The notes beneath the pieces were generated by a model, which was given only the letters and a program-made list of their open reading frames with translations, ran no database searches and was not told the origin of the DNA. A stretch of DNA of 64,000 bases. Origin: Amoebidium appalachense (taxonomy: Eukaryota > Protista > Ichthyosporea). The stretch's first letter is position 1. The number at the start of each line of letters is the position of its first letter. The position numbers were made by a program, and so were the translations under genes. Of the stretch, positions 2,260 to 62,967 are shown in pieces. The stretch covers positions 10,627,172-10,691,171 of the forward strand of contig CAVNZM010000008.1 in assembly GCA_963693365.1 (NCBI GenBank), read 5' to 3'.

Positions 2260-3502
2260 CTGTATAGTACGTTGGTTAGAAAACCAAAACACATGGACAC
2301 AAGCAACATGAGGCAGACAACAACAAAAGCAGGCAGTAACAGTAACAGTAACCTGACGCCTTGAAAGGTGGTGCAAAACAGGGGTGCAAAAAGCCTCGGC
2401 AGAGAAGCTTGATGTAGAAATCCGGTGCAGTATAACGTGAAGGAAAGGCAGATGCTAGAAACAGAATTTCCCAAGACCAAAGACAAGCAAGCCCACAAAG
2501 AGGGAATGCCGGTGAGTAGGCTTGGTGTTACTTTCGTTTGGGTGAAAATTGAACTTCGTCCTTGCACAGGCTCGAAGCACAGAGTGTACCAAACAACCAC
2601 ACGCCTAAAAATACCGTTTTTACTGACGGGAAAAAAAGAGGCCTCCGCTACGAGAAGTAACAAGATTCTGACCCCTGAAAGTTTCTCAAATCTTCCTGTT
2701 CTCCTGCCTTCCGTCGCCGATCCTTCGCCTCCAGTCCTCTATTTATCCTGTTACCTAAACTTTTTTCCCAATAGCCTTTCTTTTAAATGCACACTGACCT
2801 TAGCAAGTTTAAAGCGCCGAGGCGAAAGATTAAAAATAGTAGTTTTTCAGTTTCACGTTTCGTGGATGTGTGTCTGTGCCTCGTGGTGTCATGCACACAC
2901 GAAAAAAGGGCAGCTCTGGCTCCGCAGCATGCGTGAGCCTGGGAAGCCGTTACCCTAATTAGGTAATAGACTCAAACCCGTAAACAACAGCTAATCAACA
3001 CGACGTATCTGTTACTTATTTTGGAAAGACGATTGGAAGGAGGTAAAGAAAAGTGGATGTGGCCGTTGGAAGCACTTGGACACTTGGGCCACTTGGCCTA
3101 GGCCTTCAACTGTTCAGAAAGGACTCGGTCGGTCAGTTCGGAAGTAGGATGCCATGTTTTGATAAGGTTTATGGAATGGGATTAATATTTTGTCAGGTCC
3201 GAGCCTTCTATTGAGAGTAACAGACGAATAGTTTCTAATACACTGACAGGTACACGCACACACACGCTCTCACCATACAATCATAAGGCTGAAACGTGTA
3301 GCCCATTCGCTTCTTTCAAGCTGGAAAGCTATGTAGGAGAGGATTCGACATTCTCTCAGAGCGTAGCCTAGAAATATTCCTGCTAGCATAGATTGGCGTT
3401 GCGAGCCGTATAGTGCTATCATGAACTAAACACGTTCCAGCTTTGTCTAAGGAAAGTAATTTAACGTGATGCCACTGGTAGCGTTACATAGCACCAGATA
3501 AG

Positions 3503-4093
3503 ATGGAGCTCTATGACTTGCCAGATGAAGTGCTAAAGCTTGTGTTTCACTGTCTGACACCATACGACTTGGCTCGTGTGGCGCGAACATGTCGCAGGTG
3601 GGTTTACCTTGCAGTGTTTGCCACCACGGGCATGCAAGTATGCAGTCAAAGGGAAATAAACGACTGCGTGAGCGCAGGAAGCAAAACCGAATCTCTGCGT
3701 AACGTGATGTTTTCTGTGATTTAAAAAGTGCCTCGTACACTACAGGGTCCACTGTCGAATGCTCACAATTTTGCCCTTACCCTGTCTTTGAGGGATCCTC
3801 GTCTTGTGTTTCCCCAACTGCCTCTCTCTGGCTCCTTCCCTCCCTCCCTCCCTCCCTCCCTCTCTCCTCCCCCTCTCTCTCCCCCTCTCCCTCTATCTCC
3901 CCCCTTCCCCGCCCTCCTCTCCCCCCCCCCCCCCCTCCAGTCCTCCCCCCCCATCTCTCTCCCCCTCCCTCACCTCCCCCCCCCCCCCCCTTCCCCCCCC
4001 CCCCCCCCCCCGCGCCCTGCATCCACGCCGCCGCTATCTCCCCAACCCATTTACCTGTTTCGCAGTTCTGCACTCTCTTCTCCCTCCCTCTCA

Positions 4094-4605: not shown

Positions 4606-4640
<35 letters not shown>

Positions 4641-5741
4641 ACGCCGGGCTCTTTCTTCCCTTCATAACTTACGATCCGTGGTTCTCCCTCCCTCCGTTTG
4701 GTGGAGGGAATCCTTTGATGGGTTTGTTGTAAGTATTTTTTGCCTGCTCACTTGCTTGGTTTCCACTTTCTTGTGTTTTTCTTTTCGCCACATCTGTGCA
4801 CTCGTTAAACTTTTCTTTCCTACCCGCCATCCCCCTGCTTCTGCTTACTGCTGCAACTTTAACCCCCGGCCTTTCCCACTGCCCTTGCCTGCATAAGCAA
4901 CCCTGCTCGTCTCTGATCAAGACGGGTGACCTACCCATGTTCAAGTGAAACAGTATCTGAGTTGGGTTTCGTTAACGAGGGGAATAGGTCGAAACTCGGG
5001 TACTGTGGATGACGTGGGCCCCCCCTGAGGATGGGCTCTGCTTATTATGCATACTCTTTATGTATGGCTTGCATTCTGCATCGTGTTATCCGTTTGTTCT
5101 TGTGTACTTCGTACTTTTTAACGCATTCAAACCCCCCCCCCCCCCCCCCCCCCCCCACCCCACCCCTCCCCCTTCCCTTCCTCTTCTTACCGCCCTACCC
5201 CATTCCTCCTCCATTGCCACCACCCATCCACCCACCCAATCCCATCCCCTCCGCCTCCCGGCCTAAATATGTACATAGAGTTTAGATGATAAAACAACAA
5301 ATGACACCCACAAGCACACCCGCCTGCACGCGAGTGTATCAACACACACGTGTACGCGTACGCAAGCAAGCGCGCGCACACACACATACACACAAGATAC
5401 ACACACATGCACACACCCTACCGTGCACACATATCGGTGCGGGCTGATACATACACACACTTACACACACACAACGTATACATACATCCACACACAAATA
5501 CAAGCACACACTGTATCCCTCTCACCCATATGCTGACTCAAAAATCCAACCCTTCACGGGCTTGTGGGACCTCAATACACACGTGATACATCAACTTATT
5601 CAACCATCACATCACACTGACAGGCACACCTTTACCCTTGTCATAATCTCCCCCCCCCCCCCCCCCCCCCACCTCTCTCTCTCCCCCGCCCACATCCTGA
5701 CTGACCATTCCCTGCTCGCTTGTTCTTTTCGTTATCTGGAA

Positions 5742-10880: not shown

Positions 10881-11759
10881 AACAAAAAACAAAAAAAACA
10901 AAAAAAAAAACATCTTGGCCCCATCTCCACCCTAACAGCCACCCCTATCCACAGCTAGACCTTGAGGTTACCCCGGACACTGCCAGGTCTCCAGCCACCT
11001 TCGAGAAAGCACTTTCGAAGTTGGCTGCCTTGGCTCGCTTGGAATCTTTGGTATATGCATCCCCCCCCCCCCCCCCCGTTTGGAGCCCCCCTGAGGATGG
11101 GCTCTGCATATACTATGCATACTCTTTATGTGTGGTTTGCACTCTGCATTGTGTTGTGCGTTGTTTATGTGTACTTAGCACTTAATGACGAAATCTACCC
11201 CCCCCCCCCCCCCCCCCAAACACACACCCCCCCAACCCACCCCCCTTCCTCCCTCCCCTCTTCCCCCCCTTCTCAGGCCTCGCCGCCAAAAAGTGGTGTT
11301 TGATGCTCCTGTGTGTTCCTTGACATGTTATTGTGTATCACACAGCTTTGTTTGTTGTGTTACTTTGTATCCTGTAATGAACGGTATAGTGTTATGTGCA
11401 CTCTTGACCCCCCCCCCCCCCCCCCCCCCCCCCTCCTCATCCTCTGTTAGGCTTAGCCCCTCCTCCATTCTGCGAACACTTCAGCACTCGCATTGAAATG
11501 TAAGGTTTATTTGGCGCATTTATTTTATGGTCTATGTGCAAGATCAAACAAAAAAGAAGAAAAAAACGGTGAATTAGATAGTGATACACATGTAAACATA
11601 TCCCCAAATCAAAAGCACCAATCCTTACATAAATTTCAGAACTTGAGTGGCCGTCTTGTATCCAAGACTCTGCCCGAATTTTCGTTCATATCTGCCCTGA
11701 CTGCACTTCAGTCACTCACGCTGGTGGATTGTGCATTGACTGGTAGGTCTTTCGAGGAT

Positions 11760-13575: not shown

Positions 13576-13972
13576 TTTGAATGCGGAACACAGTACGAAG
13601 TACGCATACACGATGAGAAGCATGGTGCAGGACACATGCAAAGGCAAACATTCAAGTATGCAGCATCAGCCATGCGCACAGTATGCGTCATAAGCAGAGC
13701 CCATCCTCAGGGAGGGCCCAAGTCATCAATTGCGTCTGAGTTTCGACCCCTTAGCCCGCGTATATACGACGCTCCAACTCAGACAGCAGCATCAACTGAA
13801 CTTGGGTGGGTCAACCCGTCTTGATCAAAGACGAGCAGGGTTGCTTATGCAAGCAAGGTGAGCAAAACGGTGAAGATGTGTGTGCAAACTAATGCAGTGC
13901 AGCGACAAACGCGTGTGCTTACAGATGCACGACACAGAGCAACCATGCCCGGTTGCATGGAAGTAAAGATGT
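13576..13972 (-). mobile_element. Poly-C-associated element, subfamily B copy B1, with putative ribozyme at 13689-13849 (-)
   Basis: Reverse complement of 49024-49422. Flanked by G tracts on the + strand; 3' end CATTCAAA-poly-C on the - strand. Confidence 0.85.
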
Positions 13973-15976: not shown

Positions 15977-18010
15977 CACACGTGAGTGTGGCCGCATATG
16001 CTTGTGTGCTCCTTGCAATATTCGGCATGGCAGAAGGGTTGTGGAGGGATAGGGGGGGGGGGGGGGGGGGCATACCATTGCCCAGTCAAGGGCCTCTGTA
16101 TAGCATCTGTCAGCTCTTGGATCCTTTCGATTTCCTCAACGGTCCGAGGGGGCCAAATTTCCTCGGCAACAGATCGAGACATAAATCTGGGACACGTTGC
16201 AAGGGCAGTAAGGTCCATATTAGGAAAATGAATGATCACTCAGGAAGAGACGCTCGGGTGGCCCCTTAAAGCGTCGAGGCTGCACAAGGACTCCAAGCCA
16301 TTTAACTCGAGTTTCTTACAGGCGGTAGCACCCACCAGAGCGCTAATGTCGGTCAATTTGGAACAATGGGAAATGATTACCGTATTTAGCATGGGTGCGC
16401 GCATGGGCACGTGACCGAGAGAAACAAGGTCGTTTGATTGGACGATCACTAACGTACTTAAGTTGGGGTGATGAATTTCAGACAGCGTGTCCCAAGCAAC
16501 ACCTATAAGATCGACAACGGAAGGCGGCACCTGGACCGTGGCGGCTGTTTCGGACACCTCGAAATTGAGACGCTTTTCACCATGTTGCATTTTGAAATTC
16601 CTCCGAAATCACGCAGCGCCGCGCAATCATGGACCCCAACTTTCTGCATGTGCCTGTGCGTGTACGTCGCCGAAATGTGCGTAATTTCCTTGTTGTTTTC
16701 GATTTTCAGCTCGCAAAGCAACGGCATTTCGTCCAACGTAATTGCTACATTGACCCCTTGCTCCCCGTCATCTACCAAAACCCAGCAGCCGATTGTAAGC
16801 GCGGCAAATTGGGCTAGCCAGCCCATGGAAAATGCGACGTAGTGAAGGGAAAGCTCTCTCATCGTCTTGGCGGATTCATCCAGAAACTTTGCGGGCATTC
16901 CCATATGCACCGCACGCTGAAAGGCGGCTCTCGTGGATTCGACGCTCATGAAATACGACTCCAGTTTTTTCGTTTCGAAATCCGGAAGCGTACCGTGGAT
17001 AGCGTAGCACTCGATAGCGATTTTGCGCAAATTCGGGCACGTTCCGATCGCTGACACATCCACCGTTCCCTTACACTCAACCTCGAGTACCTCCAAATTA
17101 GGAAGGTGGGGAAGCACTAGGAGACGGCCGTGCCGGGACGATTCTGTAGATACCGACAGACGTTTTAAACATTTGCACACCTCAAGAGCGTCTAAACGGA
17201 ACGTCGTAGAATGCAGGTGGCCCTGAATGTCGATCTCAATATCAGTCATGTTTGGGAACACCCGGGATAACGCTGGCAACATTGCACACTCCCTAACGTC
17301 TACAAGTGCAAACTTGAGTATTTTCAAATTCGGTTTGCTCTGCGTGGTCGACGTTTGGTCCAGACGGCCAAGGAGGCCAATGAAAGGAAGAAATGGTCTC
17401 TGCAGACACAGGCTTTCCACAGCCGGACATTTGTTCCATACCGTCCGTAAATATTCGTTTGGTGTATTCAATGGACCGGACCATCTCATAAAGGCAACGG
17501 TTTTTAGTCTATCCCCGACCGATCCGAGCGCCACATCCACGAGCTCGCACAGAAATTTCTCATCCGCATCTTGCATGGCCCTTACGTGTGAGACTTCCAC
17601 CGTGTCCACGTTAGAAAGATCGGCCAATTAGGGACAAAACTGGAGTGTAAGCTGCCTCTGTGTGTCGTCCATTTCGACATGATCCCCTTGTAACACGAAC
17701 CTTACCGCTCCAATCGCCGTATGCCACGGTTTGAATTCGCTCAAACTACATAACGTAAACTCGCCCCCCTTCTGAGACTCTGAATCCTCTTCTTCAACCT
17801 CCGCTGAATCATTTTCCCCCGTTTCCGACAAACAATTGGAATCCTGGTCCGGAAATCGGAAAGCGTCGATTGCGATTAGGCCTGCCTGGGGGGAACGTGC
17901 TAGAGAGCAGCAACGACTGGAAACGAGGGGAAACGATAGACGGCAATCAAGTGACAAATAGCGCAAAATCTTGAAGAGGATCTCGTTGGGAAGGCAGAGT
18001 TAGGGGGCAT
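15181..18010 (-). pseudogene. F-box/LRR pseudogene (large exon ~18010-16076 plus degraded 3' exons)
   Basis: F-box LCLPNEILFKILRYLSLDCRL is out of frame with ATG 18010 (in-frame TAA just upstream). In-frame TAA at 17628-30, frameshift near 16560-16590, in-frame TGA at 16240-42. LRRs LPNLEVLEVEC, CPNLRKIAIEC, LNTVIISHCSKLTDISAL. Boundaries of the 3' exons are uncertain. Confidence 0.75.
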
Positions 18011-28908: not shown

Positions 28909-29060
28909 GTTAGGGAGCCGTTACTGACGGAGCAAAAGTACGCATTTAGACGGATAATCCAGTCCGGAGTGCAAAGCAAACAAAAAGAGTATACACAATA
29001 AGCAGAGCTCATGATCCTCAGGGCGAGCCCACGCGTCATCCACAGTACCCGAGTTTCGAC
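28909..29060 (-). mobile_element. Diverged, 5'-truncated subfamily A-like copy
   Basis: Minus strand GTCGAAACTCGGGTACTGTGGATGACGCGTGGGCTCGCCCTGAGGATCATGAGCTCTGCTTATTG..., ending CTAAC followed by a C-rich tract. Confidence 0.75.
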
Positions 29061-32067: not shown

Positions 32068-32910
32068 ACTGCGGATTGTAAAGATCCGGCACATCTAAAC
32101 CAAGAGGCATGAACTTCAAAAGGGGCCATAACAACATAAAAAAAAAAAAAGTAAAAATGGAACACTCACCCAAAGAGCAAAAGGCCGTCAACATCCTGGG
32201 AGAGTTCAAGACCGAGCCCAATACTATGGGGAGAGTCGGGGCCGAGGTAGGTCTGATAGACTTTTTCGCATCGGGAAAGATATTCAATGTCAATGCTGTC
32301 CGCTGGTTGTGATTTTCCTGCTACCAGGTCTTCTATTCCCTCCCACAGTAACACCAGTTCCTCTGCGTATTCATGTTTCAGGAACGTTACGAATGAGGCA
32401 TGGTGCTCACTGTTGTCTTGAAGGAAGCGCCTAACACCGACTGTGCCTGGTCTGCCTGGGAAAGGGAAGTATTGCGTTAGAAGGGCAGAATGACACCAAG
32501 AAGAAGAAAGGCCTTATGGTTACTTGGTCAGGCTCAGGCCGAATGCAAGAAATAACGTGAACACAGACAAGATGCATATTAGAATATTTATTCTTATCAT
32601 GCACCACAAAAATATACGGTCCACACTCATAGAAGATCATACCTGATAGTAAGAGGTCCGAGTTCGAGGTTTGAGGCGAGGGTCCCACAAAGCTGGAGCT
32701 AGAGATAGTGCTTGCCGAGTTACTACCCGTGCTAGAAATAGTGAACTTGCTCATGAGTTTTCTCTTCATCATAGCAGCCGCTCGGCCTGGCCCTGCCATG
32801 TTCGTGCCTGATATTTTCTGTTGGCTGTCGATTTGGGAGGTGAATATTGTCCACTTCCTTGAGATGCTGGTGGTGGACTCTGTGCTTGGTGGGTCATCCA
32901 CTTGCGCCAT
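30219..32910 (-). CDS. RGS (regulator of G-protein signalling) domain protein, ~391 aa; exons 32910-32643, 32455-32170, 30840-30219
   Basis: [36 protein letters not shown]...[19 protein letters not shown]...[20 protein letters not shown] matches the RGS helical pattern (F..FL..EY.EE.L.FW...E; IY..YI...AP..VN). Introns are in phase 1 and 2. Confidence 0.8.
30866..30975 (-). mobile_element. Two very short 3'-end stubs of the poly-C-associated elements (30866-30890 A/B type; 30931-30975 C type)
   Basis: Minus strand CTTCGTACTGTATGACGCATTCAAA-CCCC and ...GTAACACATTCTAA-CCCC, each embedded in poly-C. Confidence 0.65.
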
Positions 32911-35712: not shown

Positions 35713-42169
<6,457 letters not shown>

Positions 42170-49023: not shown

Positions 49024-49422
49024 ACATCTTTACTTCCATGCAACCGGGCATGGTTGCTCTGTGTCGTGCATCTGTAAGCACATACGCGTTTTTCGCTGCA
49101 CTGCATTAGTTTGCACACACATCTTCACCGTTCTGCTCACCTTGCTTGCATAAGCAACCCTGCTCGTCTTTGATCAAGACGGGTTGACCCACCCAAGTTC
49201 AGTTGATGCTGCTGTCTGAGTTGGAGCGTCGTATATACGCGGGCTAAGGGGTCGAAACTCAGACGCAATTGATGACTTGGGCCCTCCCTGAGGATGGGCT
49301 CTGCTTATGACGCATACTGTGCGCATGGCTGATGTTGCACACTTGAATGTTTGCCTTTGCATGTGTCCTGCACCATGCTTCTCATCGTGTATGTGTACTT
49401 CGTACTGTGTTCCGCATTCAAA
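49024..49422 (+). mobile_element. Poly-C-associated element, subfamily B copy B3
   Basis: Near-identical to the reverse complement of 13576-13972. Preceded by poly-C/CA; ends CATTCAAA-poly-C. Confidence 0.85.
49149..49309 (+). ncRNA. Putative permuted/split hammerhead ribozyme (subfamily B); predicted cleavage after 49222
   Basis: GTT 49220-22; stem I GGAG(49223-26)/CTCC(49284-87); CTGAGGA 49288-94; stem II GACCC(49186-90)/GGGTC(49249-53); GAAAC 49254-58; stem III GTCTGAGT/ACTCAGAC. Confidence 0.7.
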
Positions 49423-50423: not shown

Positions 50424-50754
50424 TTCGCTGCACTGCATTAGTTTGCACACACATCTGCACCGTTTTGCTCACCTTGCTTGCATAAGCAACCCTGCTCGTC
50501 TTTGATCAAGACGGGTTGACCCGCCCAAGTTCAGTTGATGCTGCTGTCTGAGTTGGAGCGTCGTATATACGCGGGCTAAGGGGTCGAAACTCAGACTCAA
50601 TTGATGACTTGGGTCCTCCCTGAGGATGGGCTCTGCTTATGACGCATACTGTGCACATGGCTGATGTTGCATACTTGATTGTTTGCCTTTGCATGTGTCC
50701 TGCACCATGCTTCTCGTCGTGTATGCGTACTTCGTACCGTGTTCCGCATTCAAA
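50424..50754 (+). mobile_element. Subfamily B copy B4 (5'-truncated), putative ribozyme at 50481-50641
   Basis: Matches B3 from TTCGCTGCACTGC onward. Poly-C on both sides. Confidence 0.85.
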
Positions 50755-50838
50755 CCCCCCCTCCCCCCCCCCCCCTTCCCCTCCTACCTTCTTTCCCCCC
50801 CCCCCCCCCCCCCCCCCTGGCCAAACCCTGTATACACT

Positions 50839-51815
50839 CTTCTCATCAGCAGGTCTCTAACCCACTCTGCAGAACGTTTTACGCATTTCTCCCCTTGGAG
50901 AACTTGGTCGTTGGTGCGTTTTTGTCTGATATCTAACGCCTTTCCAGGGTCCCCTGAGACTACTGACACTCTAACATTCCCTCCCCTCTCTTAATCCCCC
51001 CCCCCCCCCCCCCCCCCCCTCCCCCCCCCCTCCTCCTTCCCCTCCCATTTTCCCTGCACACTCAACAGGCCTTAACCAGCTCTGCACATCGTTAGTCACA
51101 ATCTTCTCTTATATATGAGAGAATGATCGTATTGGTACGATTTGTCTAATATCTGACGATTCTGCAGCATCCCTAAGACCCCCCCCCCCCCCCCTCCCTC
51201 CCCCCCCCTTTTCTCTCTCTCTCTCTTTTTTTTTTTTTTTTTTTTTTTTGGCGCCTGTTGTTTTGCTTGTCATTTGTTGTTCTGGTTGATTACCTGTAAC
51301 CTTCGCTTATTTATGTGTGTGTGTGTGTGTGTGTTGTGCGGGGTTGCACACACCGGTGTCTACTTTTCTTCCTACTTTTTTTCTCTCCACACACTTCATC
51401 TGTCCACTTCTGCATACCCCATTTCATAGCTATAGACACACTTCACACATTGCGTTACGCGCACGCATGCACACACCGCTCTGTTGGCGACAGCTCCCTT
51501 GGAACCCATGTGGCATGTTACCCGCCGGCGTAACATAACTCGGACTATCGATTTGGCTTTTTTCAAGCCCCTCCCCTCCCCCCTCCCCCTCGTGTTTCCG
51601 AATCACTTTTGCCTTCTATCGTACCCCCAGTGAAACAGTATCTGAGTTGGGTTTCGTTAACGAGGGGAATAGGTCGAAACTCGGGTACTGTGGATGACGT
51701 GGGCCCCCCCTGAGGATGGGCTCTGCTTATTATGCATACTCTTTATGTATGGCTTGCATTCTGCATCGTGTTATCCGTTTGTTCTTGTGTACTTCGTACT
51801 TTTTGACGCATTCAA

Positions 51816-51817
<2 letters not shown>
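50839..51817 (+). mobile_element. Deleted copy of the subfamily A monomer: internal region 50839-51570 plus truncated terminal repeat A2 51629-51817
   Basis: 50839-51570 is near-identical to 52896-53770. 51629-51817 matches the 3' part of A1/A4. Confidence 0.8.
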
Positions 51818-51863
<46 letters not shown>

Positions 51864-52076
51864 ACCACCACCACCACTGTAGTGATACATACACACATCC
51901 GCCCGCACACACACACACACACGCACACACGTGCGCGCGCGCTTGCATACAAACACAAACACATGGCCTTGCACGCATGTGTGGGCACACACACACACAT
52001 ATGCGTGTGGGCGCGTACAGGCACAAGCACGATCACCCGCAGTCACGCACATTCACACACAGTCGCACAACACGCG

Positions 52077-52127
<51 letters not shown>

Positions 52128-52586
52128 CACACACACACATGCGCGGGCATACACACAAACACAAACACATGCCTTTGCACACATGTGTGTGCGCACACAC
52201 ACACACATATACGTGTGGGCGCGTACAGGCACAAGCACAATCACCGGCAGTCTCGTACAATCACACACACAGTCGCAAAACACACACACACACACACACA
52301 AATACACCCGGCAGAAGACACACATACGGGTACACGGCACATCATGCATTGCCCAAAACAAGCACGTGCATACACGCATAGCACATATCCCCCCCTCCCT
52401 CCCCCCTCCCCCTCCCCCCCACACAAACACACACACACCCATTTTGCTCTTTCCTCTCCACCCGGGCGTACCCACTAACCATTTTCCTGTCCCCGCAGTT
52501 ATCCTGTCGACCACAATTGGGACGGTACAAATCCACACTGACCATACGCCAAACCATAGAAAAGAAGTTGGAGGAAATGTATGGAG

Positions 52587-52623
<37 letters not shown>

Positions 52624-52626
<3 letters not shown>

Positions 52627-53310
52627 ACTGCCCGTGCCTGCATAAGCAACCCTGCTCGTCTCTGATCAAGACGGGTGACCTACCCATGTTCAAGTGAAAC
52701 AGTATCTGAGTTGGGTTTCGTTAACGAGGGGAATAGGTCGAAACTCGGGTACTGTGGATGACGTGGGCCCCCCCTAAGGATGGGCTCTGCTTATTATGCA
52801 TACTCTTTATGTATGGCTTGCATTCTGCATCGTGTTATCCGTTTGTTCTTGTGTACTTCGTACTTTTTGATGCATTCAACACCCCCCCCCCCCCTTCTCA
52901 TCAGCAGGTCTCTAACCCACTCTGCAGAACGTTTTACGCATTTCTCCCCTCGGAGAACTTGGTCGTTGGTGCGTTTTTGTCTGACATCTAACGACTCTGC
53001 AGGGTCCCCTGAGACTACTGACACTCTAACATTCCCTCCCCTCTCTTACTTCCCCCCCCCCCCCCTCCCCCTTTCCCTCCTCCTTCCCCTCCCATTTTCT
53101 CTGCACACCCAACAGGTCTTAACCAGATCTGCACATCGTTAGTCACAATCTTCTCACATATATGAGAGAATGATCGTATTGGTACGATTTGTCTAATATC
53201 TGACGATTCTGCAGCATCCCTAAGACCCCCCTCCCCCTCCCCTCCCCCTCCCCCCCCCCCCCCCCCCCACCTTCTCTCTCTCTCTCTCTCCCTCTCTCCC
53301 TCTCTCTCTC

Positions 53311-53399
<89 letters not shown>

Positions 53400-53404
53400 T
53401 TCCT

Positions 53405-53439
<35 letters not shown>

Positions 53440-53500
53440 GCGCCTGTTGTTTTGCTTGTCATTTGTTGTTCTGGTTGATTACCTGTAATCTTCGCTTATT

Positions 53501-53535
<35 letters not shown>

Positions 53536-54336
53536 TGTGCGGGGTTGCACATACCGGTGTCTACTTTTCTTCTTACTGTTTTTCTCTCCACACACTTCAT
53601 CTGTCCACTTCTGCATACCCCCTTTCATAGCTATAGACACACTTCACACATTGCGTTACGCGCACGCATGCACACACCGCTCTGTTGGCGACAGCTCCCT
53701 TGGAACCCATGCGGCATGTTACCCGCCGGCGTAACATAACTCGGACTATCGGTTTGGCTTTTTTCAAGCCCAAAGCAATGGGTGATACCATATTTCCGGC
53801 TGACGTCCGGGGGCATAGCTTTCCGTTCGAAGACGATAAAGTTCCGCCCTAGTAAGCGTGTTACTACCCTGCGGCGTGGGTCAAATCTCATATTTTCCCC
53901 TCTGATTACGAATTCTGTGGCCTTCGGGACTTAATTCTTTTCAGCTGGTGTAGTATGTTAGCCAGGGAAGTATCGACTTAGGTATCGACGGGGGAGCTTC
54001 CTAGAAGCCCCGTCTCCTGAGTTCCTATCTATATTTTTCTTGCTTCTGCTTACTGCTGCAACTTTAACCCCCGGCCTTTCCCACTGCCCTTGCCTGCATA
54101 AGCAACCCTGCTCGTCTCTGATCAAGACGGGTGACCTACTCATGTTCAAGTGAAACAGTATCTGAGTTGGGTTTCGTTAACGAGGGGAATAGGTCGAAAC
54201 TCGGGTACTGTGGATGACGTGGGCCCCCCCTGAGGATGGGCTCTGCTTATTATGCATACTCTTTATGTATGGCTTGCATTCTGCATCGTGTTATCCGTTT
54301 GTTCTTGTGTACTTCGTACTTTTTGACGCATTCAAA
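52624..54336 (+). mobile_element. Retrozyme/non-autonomous Penelope-like unit: terminal repeat A3 (52624-52881), non-coding internal region, terminal repeat A4 (54041-54336)
   Basis: Direct repeats 1456 bp apart, each carrying the putative ribozyme (52641-52794, 54097-54250). The upstream repeat is 5'-truncated into poly-C. No credible ORF inside. Confidence 0.75.
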
Positions 54337-55378
54337 CCCCCCCCCCCCCCCCCCCCCCCTCTCCCCATCCCTCCCTCCCTCCCACCCATGTGTCCTTGTG
54401 AAGCTTCATGCACGTACTATTACCCCCCTCCCCCTCCCCCCTCCTCTTGAGGATGGGCTTTACTTTTGGTGTGGGTGCTGTGTCTCCTTTATTGCACATG
54501 GGCATTAATTTGCTCGTTGTGAGTTTGTACTTCATTCTGTCCTCCGGGTTGCGCTTCAACACGTACACATACACGATGGCTTCTCAGTTCTGCATTACAG
54601 TTTGGTTTTGACCCTCTCAATACACTCATACCCCTCTTCCCCCCTCCCCTCCCGCCCCCACCTCGGGCGCTTCTGCCCGCTCCCCTCACTCTCTCTCCCC
54701 TTTCACCTCTCTCACTCGTTCAATTGCAACACTCACATGCTCATGCACCCCGTTCACACTCGTGCTTACACTTCTTACACTCGCACTCGTGCGCATTCAA
54801 AGACACAGGCGCGCGCTTGCACACACCTTCATGCACATGCCGACCACCTGTTGCCTTATGACCACCCCCCCACACAAGGTATGTGTTCGTTCACTGCAAA
54901 TAGATGGCTTTTGGTGATGGGTGCTAAGCATCGTCACGGGAAGGGGGACCCCCCCCCCCCCTCCCCCCCCCCCCCCCACTACACACACAACGGTTTCTAG
55001 GCTCACCTTATGAAATAGTTGCTTTTCCGTTTCTGACCCGTTGTGCCCACAGAAAGCAGCGCGAAGACCTTGCACAGCTGGGCTTTGTGCCAAGGTGTGT
55101 GCACGTGTGTGTGTGTGTGTGTGTGTCTTTGGGGAAGGGGAGGAAAGTGGGGGGGGGGGGGGGGGGGGGGGGGGATCAGATTGGTGTTTTATGCGTGCCC
55201 GTGTGCGTGGGTGTGTGCGTGTGTGTTTGTGTGTGTGTGTGTGTACCTGCGCGTGCGTGTGCATCCGTGTGTCCATGCGTCCGTGCGTCCGTGAATGATT
55301 CTGGCCTGGATGTTTGGTTGGTGTGGGTGTGAGCATTAGTGCACGTTATGTCCATGGGGCCTGTCTATGGCGGGGGCC

Positions 55379-59121: not shown

Positions 59122-62967
<3,846 letters not shown>

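Follow-up and report, generated by a model that had tools for sequence, protein, structure and literature searches.

The 64,000-nucleotide (nt) stretch analyzed here, hereafter the window, covers positions 10,627,172 to 10,691,171 of contig CAVNZM010000008.1 (assembly GCA_963693365.1) from Amoebidium appalachense, which we take to be an ichthyosporean, a single-celled relative of animals. It carries a very abundant repeat with a motif of ~155 nt that holds the core words of a hammerhead ribozyme in an unusual arrangement. The original prediction, drawn from the letters alone, had placed six full copies of the motif in two subfamilies, and BLAST and a hammerhead descriptor scan permitting any block order recovered all six where they had been placed; over both strands of the window the scan returned exactly these six sites. 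Subfamily A comprises the copies at 4892, 52641 and 54097, and subfamily B those at 13849 (minus strand), 49149 and 50481, with ~81% identity between A and B. The same scan detected no canonical hammerhead on either strand of the window, and no canonical arrangement was found within 220 nt of any core in it. Model R1 of the motif, in which the inner closing helix is one column off (touching 3 of 34 pairs), yielded no further full copies within the window. In an Rfam scan at E ≤ 1, no hammerhead family was seen in 150 of the 151 listed matches and none fell on the copies; the matches were low-complexity microRNA and small nucleolar RNA types, all off the copies.

The copy at 4892 (subfamily A) is composed of the following segments, where P1 and P2 are accessory helices and the k-turn is a kink-turn.

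4893..4903, plus strand: 5′ strand of the closing helix P1; 4893-4899 pairs with 5039-5045, and 4901-4903 with 5033-5035
4905..4927, plus strand: hairpin P2, directly 5′ of G10.1, with a 6-nt palindrome in its loop
4928..4933, plus strand: 5′ strand of stem II (10.1-10.6), detached from A9; pairs with 4985-4990
4934..4943, plus strand: 5′ strand of the I-II interaction helix, the C helix of the k-turn; pairs with 5010-5018, with one bulged U
4944..4949, plus strand: bulge strand of the k-turn consensus; a 3-nt loop, then G.A and A.G with 5007-5009
4950..4963, plus strand: 16.x strand of stem III, U16.1 (4962) and U17 (4963); 13 bp with 4994-5006
4964..4966, plus strand: 1.x strand of stem I; pairs with 5022-5024
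4967..4984, plus strand: hairpin linker from 1.x to 11.x, with a self-complementary 10-mer at 4969-4978
4985..5006, plus strand: 3′ strand of stem II, GAAA core (G12 = 4991) and 15.x strand of stem III (descriptor scan, pair table)
5022..5032, plus strand: 2.x strand of stem I, CUGAGGA core (C3 = 5025, A9 = 5031) and a U at 9.1 (descriptor scan)

Read 5′ to 3′, the strands succeed one another as P1, P2, 10.x, I-II helix, k-turn bulge, stem III with GUU, 1.x, linker, 11.x and GAAA, and then return through stem III, the k-turn partner strand, the I-II helix, 2.x, CUGAGGA, the U and P1. The blocks stand in the order S-G-C (cleavage site, GAAA, CUGAGGA) in 6/6 copies. G12-A13-A14, A15.1-U16.1, H17 and G10.1-C11.1 are kept in all six. 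The claim that the whole core is invariant thus held for the GAAA and GTT positions (6/6) and failed for CUGAGGA (C3-U4-G5-A6-N7-G8-A9), which is intact in 5/6 copies; the copy at 52641 reads CTAAGGA, a G5A change. Stem I has 3 bp in A and 4 bp in B. When its 5′ strand is taken from upstream, stem II has 6 bp (A) or 5 bp (B); the bases that follow CUGAGGA-U contiguously give just 2 bp. Stem III has 13 bp in A, longer than had been predicted, and 8-9 bp in B. G10.1 sits 103 nt upstream of A9 in subfamily A, so that the two are not contiguous with ≤2 inserted bases between them. The predicted topology, with a non-circular order, stem II split at 9/10, its 5′ strand supplied from upstream and a closing stem, was supported, and was strengthened by the 3′ untranslated regions (UTRs) of Naiad elements, read by eye, which are unrelated in sequence. 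Cleavage is predicted 3′ of 4963, after GUU (4961-4963), and at the equivalent position 49222 in B; the original prediction had placed U17 correctly at both.

The nested scaffold of the motif is the minimum free energy (MFE) fold in both A and B, with the 10.x strand left unpaired. The outer 7 bp of P1 appear in the MFE folds of both subfamilies and its inner 3 bp in the B fold alone. The B fold is more stable than its shuffles (z = -2.8). In the model, stems I and II are two pseudoknots that link the terminal loop with the junction. Between the I-II helix (the CCCAWG helix) and stem III lies a loop that the original prediction did not contain: a k-turn consensus (3-nt bulge, G1b.A1n, A2b.G2n) is present in 6/6 copies, the 3b.3n position being occupied by A.G in subfamily A and by U.U in subfamily B. 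The linker measures 18 nt in A and 22 nt in B, and that of B has a different self-complementary 10-mer.

Because the blocks stand in SGC order and block C is not intact, the motif fails types I-III, SGC and CSG, and its best placement is the CSG/SGC class opened at 9/10. These data suggest that (i) the motif is very probably a real, selected RNA fold; and (ii) it is probably a cleaving split-core hammerhead of the non-circular CSG/SGC class, with the backbone opened between A9 and G10.1 (probability ~0.72).

The split pattern was matched in 0/20,000 dinucleotide shuffles of A, and likewise in 0/20,000 of B. When the core motifs were fixed and the rest was shuffled, a looser pattern passed in 140 (A) and 141 (B) per 20,000 (0.7%); the real helices are longer than this pattern requires, and there are three further helices. 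On both strands of 23 metagenome loci (223,120 bases) the split pattern gave 0 matches, and canonical type II hammerheads were detected by the descriptor in 3/23 of these loci. The 23 loci held no family member (no BLAST match; 0 matches with model R1), and a pattern scan of viral contigs gave 0 matches.

The strongest covariation evidence comes from Naiad, a group of Penelope-like elements (PLEs), because its sequences seem unrelated to those of the window in primary sequence. Naiad and most Chlamys elements are reported to lack canonical hammerheads, as the original prediction had correctly stated, and some have an unassigned core or half core, flagged by the authors as 'HHR_core' or 'HHR_half_core' with no fold assigned (PMC8557442). 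The consensus 3′ UTRs in excerpts of File S5 of that paper were searched with short strings (7-12-mers) and their structures were read by eye. The split six-helix order of the window was found in 9/54 Naiad consensus records (Naiad_Bfor, Naiad-3_Chem, Naiad_Amil, Naiad_Anas, Naiad-2_Movir, Naiad_Plae, Naiad_Obim, Naiad_Ovul and the record before Naiad_Ppla); Naiad_Aacu, additional to these nine, has the split order with mismatches. The split records have a hairpin directly 5′ of G10.1 and a closing helix right after A9, which is weak in octopus, and stem I of Naiad_Bfor has just 2 bp. In seven further Naiad records (Ppac, by file order, Parc, Nbra-1, -2 and -3, one Hcon/Hpol record and Smim) the hammerhead is of intact CSG type and is accompanied by the same I-II helix. 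A NUH triplet occupies the predicted site in 16/16 of the split and intact records. The figure of 16/54 is a lower bound, since the search used short strings, the lists were shown in part and line breaks could hide matches. Among the excerpts listed, none from the Darwinula, Limulus, Parasteatoda, hemichordate or bivalve Naiad was assigned to the fold. By eye, the Darwinula Naiad 3′ UTRs possibly have a helix inserted after A9 in another block order. The bivalve and hemichordate Naiad 3′ UTRs share a different structured motif, whose excerpts contain no hammerhead core and which might be another ribozyme or a reverse transcriptase (RT)-binding RNA.

Within the window, covariation between the subfamilies was found, as predicted, in stems I to III, as well as in the I-II helix; it rests on one A/B split. 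In the alignment 205/205 pair cells are paired, with double changes in 3/41 pairs; control structures slid along the same alignment had 28-46% of cells paired and 0 double changes. Stems I, II and III each have at least one double change between A and B, which represent few independent events. Pair 3 of stem I is G-C in A and A-U in B (taken from a coordinate-based pair table, MAFFT having misaligned it), and a fourth pair exists only in B; pair 5 of stem II is U-A in A vs. C-G in B; and the 9-bp I-II helix has one double change (U.G vs. A-U).

Public sequencing contigs gave a wider sample: in run X1 the B stretch was covered by 13,874 contigs and the A stretch by 6,478; contig counts were used, and summed contig depth was not taken as copy number. 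Runs X9 and X10 (3 and 2 contigs) were too few to inform. In A, the two sides of stem II pair 5 changed (4932 T>C and 4986 A>G) at matched frequencies of 3-5% in X1, X4 and X8 (3/4 runs), and 4935 C>T retains a U.G pair of the I-II helix. In the 5022-5032 strand, variants at ≥1% depth were confined to 5022, 5025 and 5026, the two core ones at <2%. Four variable sites of B that fall in predicted loops or linkers (49170, 49191, 49227 and 49282) are among the common variants. One contig each in X1 and X8 (over 4931-5028) has the 10.x strand joined almost directly to 11.x; these contigs represent one more subfamily, in which the stem III strand differs and the k-turn strand is unchanged, and the deletion between the paired stem II strands could be an RT jump.

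The motif copies lie in longer repeats, and BLAST of the window added six clear partial copies and one doubtful one.

4836..5131, plus strand: subfamily A copy with the motif at 4892-5045; extent common to the copy at 54041; C-run after the 3′ end
13576..13970, minus strand: subfamily B copy, ~395 nt, with the motif at 13849-13689
49026..49422, plus strand: subfamily B copy with the motif at 49149-49309, cut predicted after 49222; 5′ start as in the 13970 copy
50424..50754, plus strand: subfamily B copy whose 5′ truncation falls upstream of the motif; outer stem III has one C.U mismatch
52624..52881, plus strand: subfamily A copy with the core change G5A, predicted inactive as donor of that block
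54041..54336, plus strand: subfamily A copy
51629..51817, plus strand: 5′-truncated A copy, starting at the k-turn bulge
60436..60560, minus strand: 5′-truncated A copy
39421..39562, minus strand: 5′-truncated B copy, starting at a C-run before the core
11080..11197, plus strand: 5′-truncated divergent copy
28950..29060, minus strand: decayed, 5′-truncated A-like copy
40236..40364, minus strand: decayed, internally deleted copy from a third subfamily; U16.1 changed to C

The identical 3′ end point followed by a C-run was found in 10/10 copies inspected. Many copies are 5′-truncated; the two B copies at 13970 and 49026 share their 5′ start and a length of ~395 nt. The third-subfamily copy retains the 10.x strand, the 5′ strand of the I-II helix and the k-turn bulge strand. 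The copies are dispersed or parted by unrelated spacers rather than forming head-to-tail units, and four of them cluster at 50424-54336 around a duplicated spacer, with no open reading frame (ORF) there. The carrier probably represents a Penelope-like retroelement of Naiad type, either its 3′ end or a short derivative of it.

In the mechanism that we propose, P1 and P2 would stack and hold A9 beside G10.1; the break would fall where PLE hammerheads already tolerate an extra base (PMC4209133). The loop with the cut site and GAAA would dock on the CUGAGGA junction through stems I and II, and cleavage would follow GUU (4963, 49222), as in the tested SGC and CSG forms. Stem III and the non-canonical pairs make up 16 levels in both subfamilies, and the arm from the k-turn to the end of stem II has ~24-25 stacked levels (~67-70 Å); the 9-bp I-II helix spans ~25 Å and is linked to stem II by 0-1 nt. 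A two-rod estimate with the k-turn at 50 degrees leaves a closure gap of 55-57 Å. This suggests that, if the k-turn folds, the gap is too wide for one molecule even when helix width is allowed for, and that two molecules would close as a parallelogram. Because the arm is far longer than the I-II helix, we slightly favor a dimer, in which the loop of one copy and the junction of the other would together make up each site. The likely role of the ribozyme would be to cut a unit-length RNA out of a two-copy transcript, in line with the proposal for PLE hammerheads that they cut, ligate and circularize (PMC4209133). After the cut, P1, the I-II helix and stem III are predicted to hold the two halves together, which would favor re-ligation to a circular template, and internal priming of the kind shown for another PLE (PMC11167929) would then yield copies that span the cut site. 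RNAcofold homodimers gain ~11-12 kcal/mol through palindromes and strand swaps, a figure obtained without a shuffle control by a program unable to represent contacts between loop and junction, and not counted as evidence.

Several results weigh against a cleaving split-core ribozyme. The same number of double-change pairs was reached in 160/500 shuffles, and covariation within the window is essentially the single A-vs.-B split, with the structure drawn from the same sequences. P1 and the P2 stem are identical in A and B and offer no within-window covariation; in the contigs the G>A change in P2 (4924, ~10% depth) mostly came without a partner change in run X4 (10% and 16%), and cross-mapping between subfamilies affects the variant tables, so that part of the matched stem II signal may come from B or a third subfamily. 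The A fold is not more stable than its shuffles (z = -1.1). Since block C is presumed to tolerate at most 1-2 inserted bases (PMC10085705), a split core lies outside tested ground. The truncations give no support for the site, as no partial copy starts at the predicted cut. A fold inherited from a Naiad-type ribozyme that in this family no longer cuts usefully and serves as a structural or protein-binding handle for RT or an L7Ae-family protein would fit this lack of truncations at the cut, a stem I of only 3-4 bp, the strained geometry, the G5A change in one of six copies, the full copies that run across the cut site and the poor in vitro cleavage of minimal PLE hammerheads (PMC4209133). Yet the two subfamilies, ~19% apart, have each retained every catalytic position and the two pseudoknot stems, and no variant at ≥1% depth occurs in the A contigs at G5-A9, G12-A15.1 or U16.1-U17, although most other positions are equally clean; we consider a non-cleaving handle unlikely. 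The triplet itself also speaks for a handle, GUU being weaker than GUC. An ordinary type-SGC hammerhead, with stem II formed by the bases after CUGAGGA-U and an incidental upstream match, would explain the linear S-G-C order and the G after U9.1, which is as in intact forms, but it is very improbable: it has 2 contiguous pairs vs. 5-6 upstream, the upstream strand co-changes with 11.5, and in the split Naiad records in the excerpts the partner is upstream and the post-core bases pair with the upstream closing strand. Least probable of all is that hammerhead-like words came together by chance in a structured repeat, or that a canonical hammerhead arises only across neighboring copies. The missing Rfam support and the shared ancestry of high-copy repeats would suit chance; the 0/40,000 shuffles, the lack of a canonical arrangement in the 220 nt around each core of the window and the presence of the architecture in unrelated Naiad sequences do not.

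If the split-core ribozyme is accepted, the same molecule might cut as a monomer, the loop that separates the I-II helix from stem III being open and flexible rather than folded as a k-turn; this takes a substantial share of the probability given above and is quite conceivable, if short of even odds. In B all five levels next to the C helix are non-Watson-Crick, and by the crude two-rod estimate a monomer could close if ~5 levels at the kink open. The Bfor, Chem-3, octopus and nematode Naiad forms have, by eye, matched arms or long linkers that suit a monomer. SGC and CSG RNAs are cleaved during transcription, and the word 'dimer' stands only in the reference list of the text of PMC10085705. 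These points tell against a dimer. On its side, A and B both retain the exact 3-nt bulge with G.A and A.G, and the third subfamily retains the bulge strand; the 3n position of A is G, the kind of k-turn reported to fold in metal ions (PMC4382518); and the arm has the same number of levels in both subfamilies. On this model evidence we lean slightly toward the Amoebidium form working as a head-to-tail dimer rather than a monomer. A wider proposal can be made only tentatively: an obligate two-copy ring of two k-turn-bent molecules, head to tail, would act as an end-sensing cut-and-circularize switch needing both repeats, and Naiad-type elements, regarded as confined to animals and free of ribozymes, would use a series of CSG-class forms (intact, split, monomer, dimer) and would either date back as far as a unicellular relative of animals or have entered it by a jump. 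Independently of the chemistry, the motif could have been picked up by a carrier of another kind, Chlamys-like or unrelated. Targeting of C-runs is listed for Chlamys, which inserts at (C)n and (CA)n, and (TA)n for Naiad; both are 5′-truncated, and the Naiad hosts tabulated are animals only (PMC8557442). No RT or GIY-YIG domain was found by Pfam in the 150 longest of the 205 high-complexity ORFs of the window, nor by a motif scan. Both the target and this absence count against a Naiad carrier; among the supplement matches listed, however, the architecture occurs only in Naiad records, and none of the Chlamys excerpts listed was assigned to it. The architecture points to Naiad and the target resembles that of Chlamys, and we hold a non-Naiad carrier to be rather unlikely.

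Other features of the window concern the surroundings of the repeat. A weak distant match to its 3′ half lies at 54441-54570 (E about 0.3), perhaps from an old subfamily. The segments 50839-51570 and 52894-53771 form a local duplication of ~730-880 nt, each directly after the C-run of a ribozyme repeat. In this spacer between ribozyme copies lie diverged units of ~110 nt (50855-50965 and 51070-51180, with duplicates at 52900-53012 and 53115-53225); from a single fold without controls they seemingly adopt one multibranch structure (closing helix and two hairpins) with differing sequences, and are possibly a structured repeat. The two A copies with a common 5′ boundary (4836 and 54041) are preceded by unrelated, single-copy sequences (4640-4835 and 53772-54040), which are candidate 3′ UTRs of longer parent elements. 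Host exons encode an F-box (3482-3721, plus strand), an LRR-like protein (16506-17627, minus strand), an RGS domain (32169-32513, minus strand) and a RING domain (59125-59283, minus strand). The RGS exon matches an Amoebidium parasiticum protein in EukProt with 100% identity across 83% of the exon's length, which places the window in that genus or in a very close relative; the LRR-like ORF fell below the Pfam cut-off and had no homolog at E ≤ 1e-5. In the metagenome set, loci L008, L012, L017, L018 and L022 carry type II hammerheads with a pseudoknot between loop I and stem II, unrelated to the Amoebidium motif; three of the five passed the descriptor and two were judged by eye.

If it cleaves, the motif breaks the stated rule that the CUGANGA block is uninterruptible and adds hammerhead topologies beyond the six thought possible. 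Non-circular permutations would no longer be limited to rare contigs from environmental samples but would occur in eukaryotic repeats of very high copy number, and a Naiad-type motif would be placed outside animals. It would also explain why Naiad is reported without hammerheads yet thrives, an observation used to argue that these ribozymes may be dispensable. The dimer model bears on the geometric puzzle of type SGC and on the formation of partial tandems by PLEs. In the literature searched, mainly open-access, we found no account of the split form, of a Naiad ribozyme or of PLEs in Amoebidium, and no paper combining hammerhead, k-turn and retrotransposon.

Among known systems, the closest in core and order are the type SGC (HRIMA-1 and variants) and CSG RNAs, which cleave in vitro (Eckert et al., 2023; PMC10085705). 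The original prediction wrongly placed the reported non-circular permutations in Xenopus; according to that paper their sources are metatranscriptomes, metagenomes and one bacterium, and its main text has 0 mentions of 'Xenopus'. The Amoebidium motif shares with these RNAs the non-circular cyclic order, the full core and a helix that joins the far ends of stems I and II. It differs from SGC in that block C is interrupted at 9/10 by the closing helix and a hairpin, with the 10.x strand first, and in its k-turn consensus and 18-22 nt hairpin linker, where the 1.x-11.x linker of SGC is typically 3 nt. As a further parallel, some SGC members have the I-II helix joined directly to stem III, which the authors had difficulty reconciling with the crystal structure (PMC10085705), a misfit of the kind met in the closure estimate above. 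The Amoebidium motif lies in a eukaryotic nuclear repeat and measures ~155 nt, and the SGC RNAs are ~80 nt and come from metatranscriptomes and metagenomes. With CSG it shares the cyclic order, but it is opened inside block C, and a linear C, S, G order with an intact block C is not present. From types I, II and III it is set apart by its SGC order, not CGS, GSC or SCG, and by the absence of an Rfam match.

The minimal type I hammerheads of canonical PLEs and of non-long-terminal-repeat (non-LTR) retrozymes (PMC4209133; bioRxiv 10.64898/2026.07.22.740005) have in common with the motif the PLE setting (probable here), an extra base at 9.1, which is conserved between 9 and 10.1 in PLE hammerheads, and G10.1-C11.1. 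Their activity depends on dimers (in PLEs, the metazoan ones act in this way) and they are proposed to cut and circularize; the counterpart in Amoebidium is a prediction. Canonical PLE type I motifs keep the canonical order and swap strands via stem III, in contrast to the non-circular Amoebidium motif, in which any swap would run via stems I and II. Non-LTR retrozymes consist of head-to-tail units, each with a type I hammerhead, unlike the dispersed Amoebidium copies, which are not type I. The matched passages of Forgia et al. (2023; PMC10162972) contain no extra-helix or permuted hammerhead. With standard k-turns (PMC5061560, PMC4382518, PMC5689011) the motif shares the 3-nt bulge followed by G.A and A.G, its folding here being predicted. 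Compared with the Naiad records inspected, the Amoebidium form has an ichthyosporean rather than an animal host, a (C)n target as in Chlamys and no ORF found; its stem III arm is longer than most, its k-turn orientation is opposite to that read in the octopus records, and its hairpin linker insert has no counterpart. It shares with Naiad the split architecture, 5′ truncation, a fixed 3′ end, microsatellite targeting and a very high copy number.

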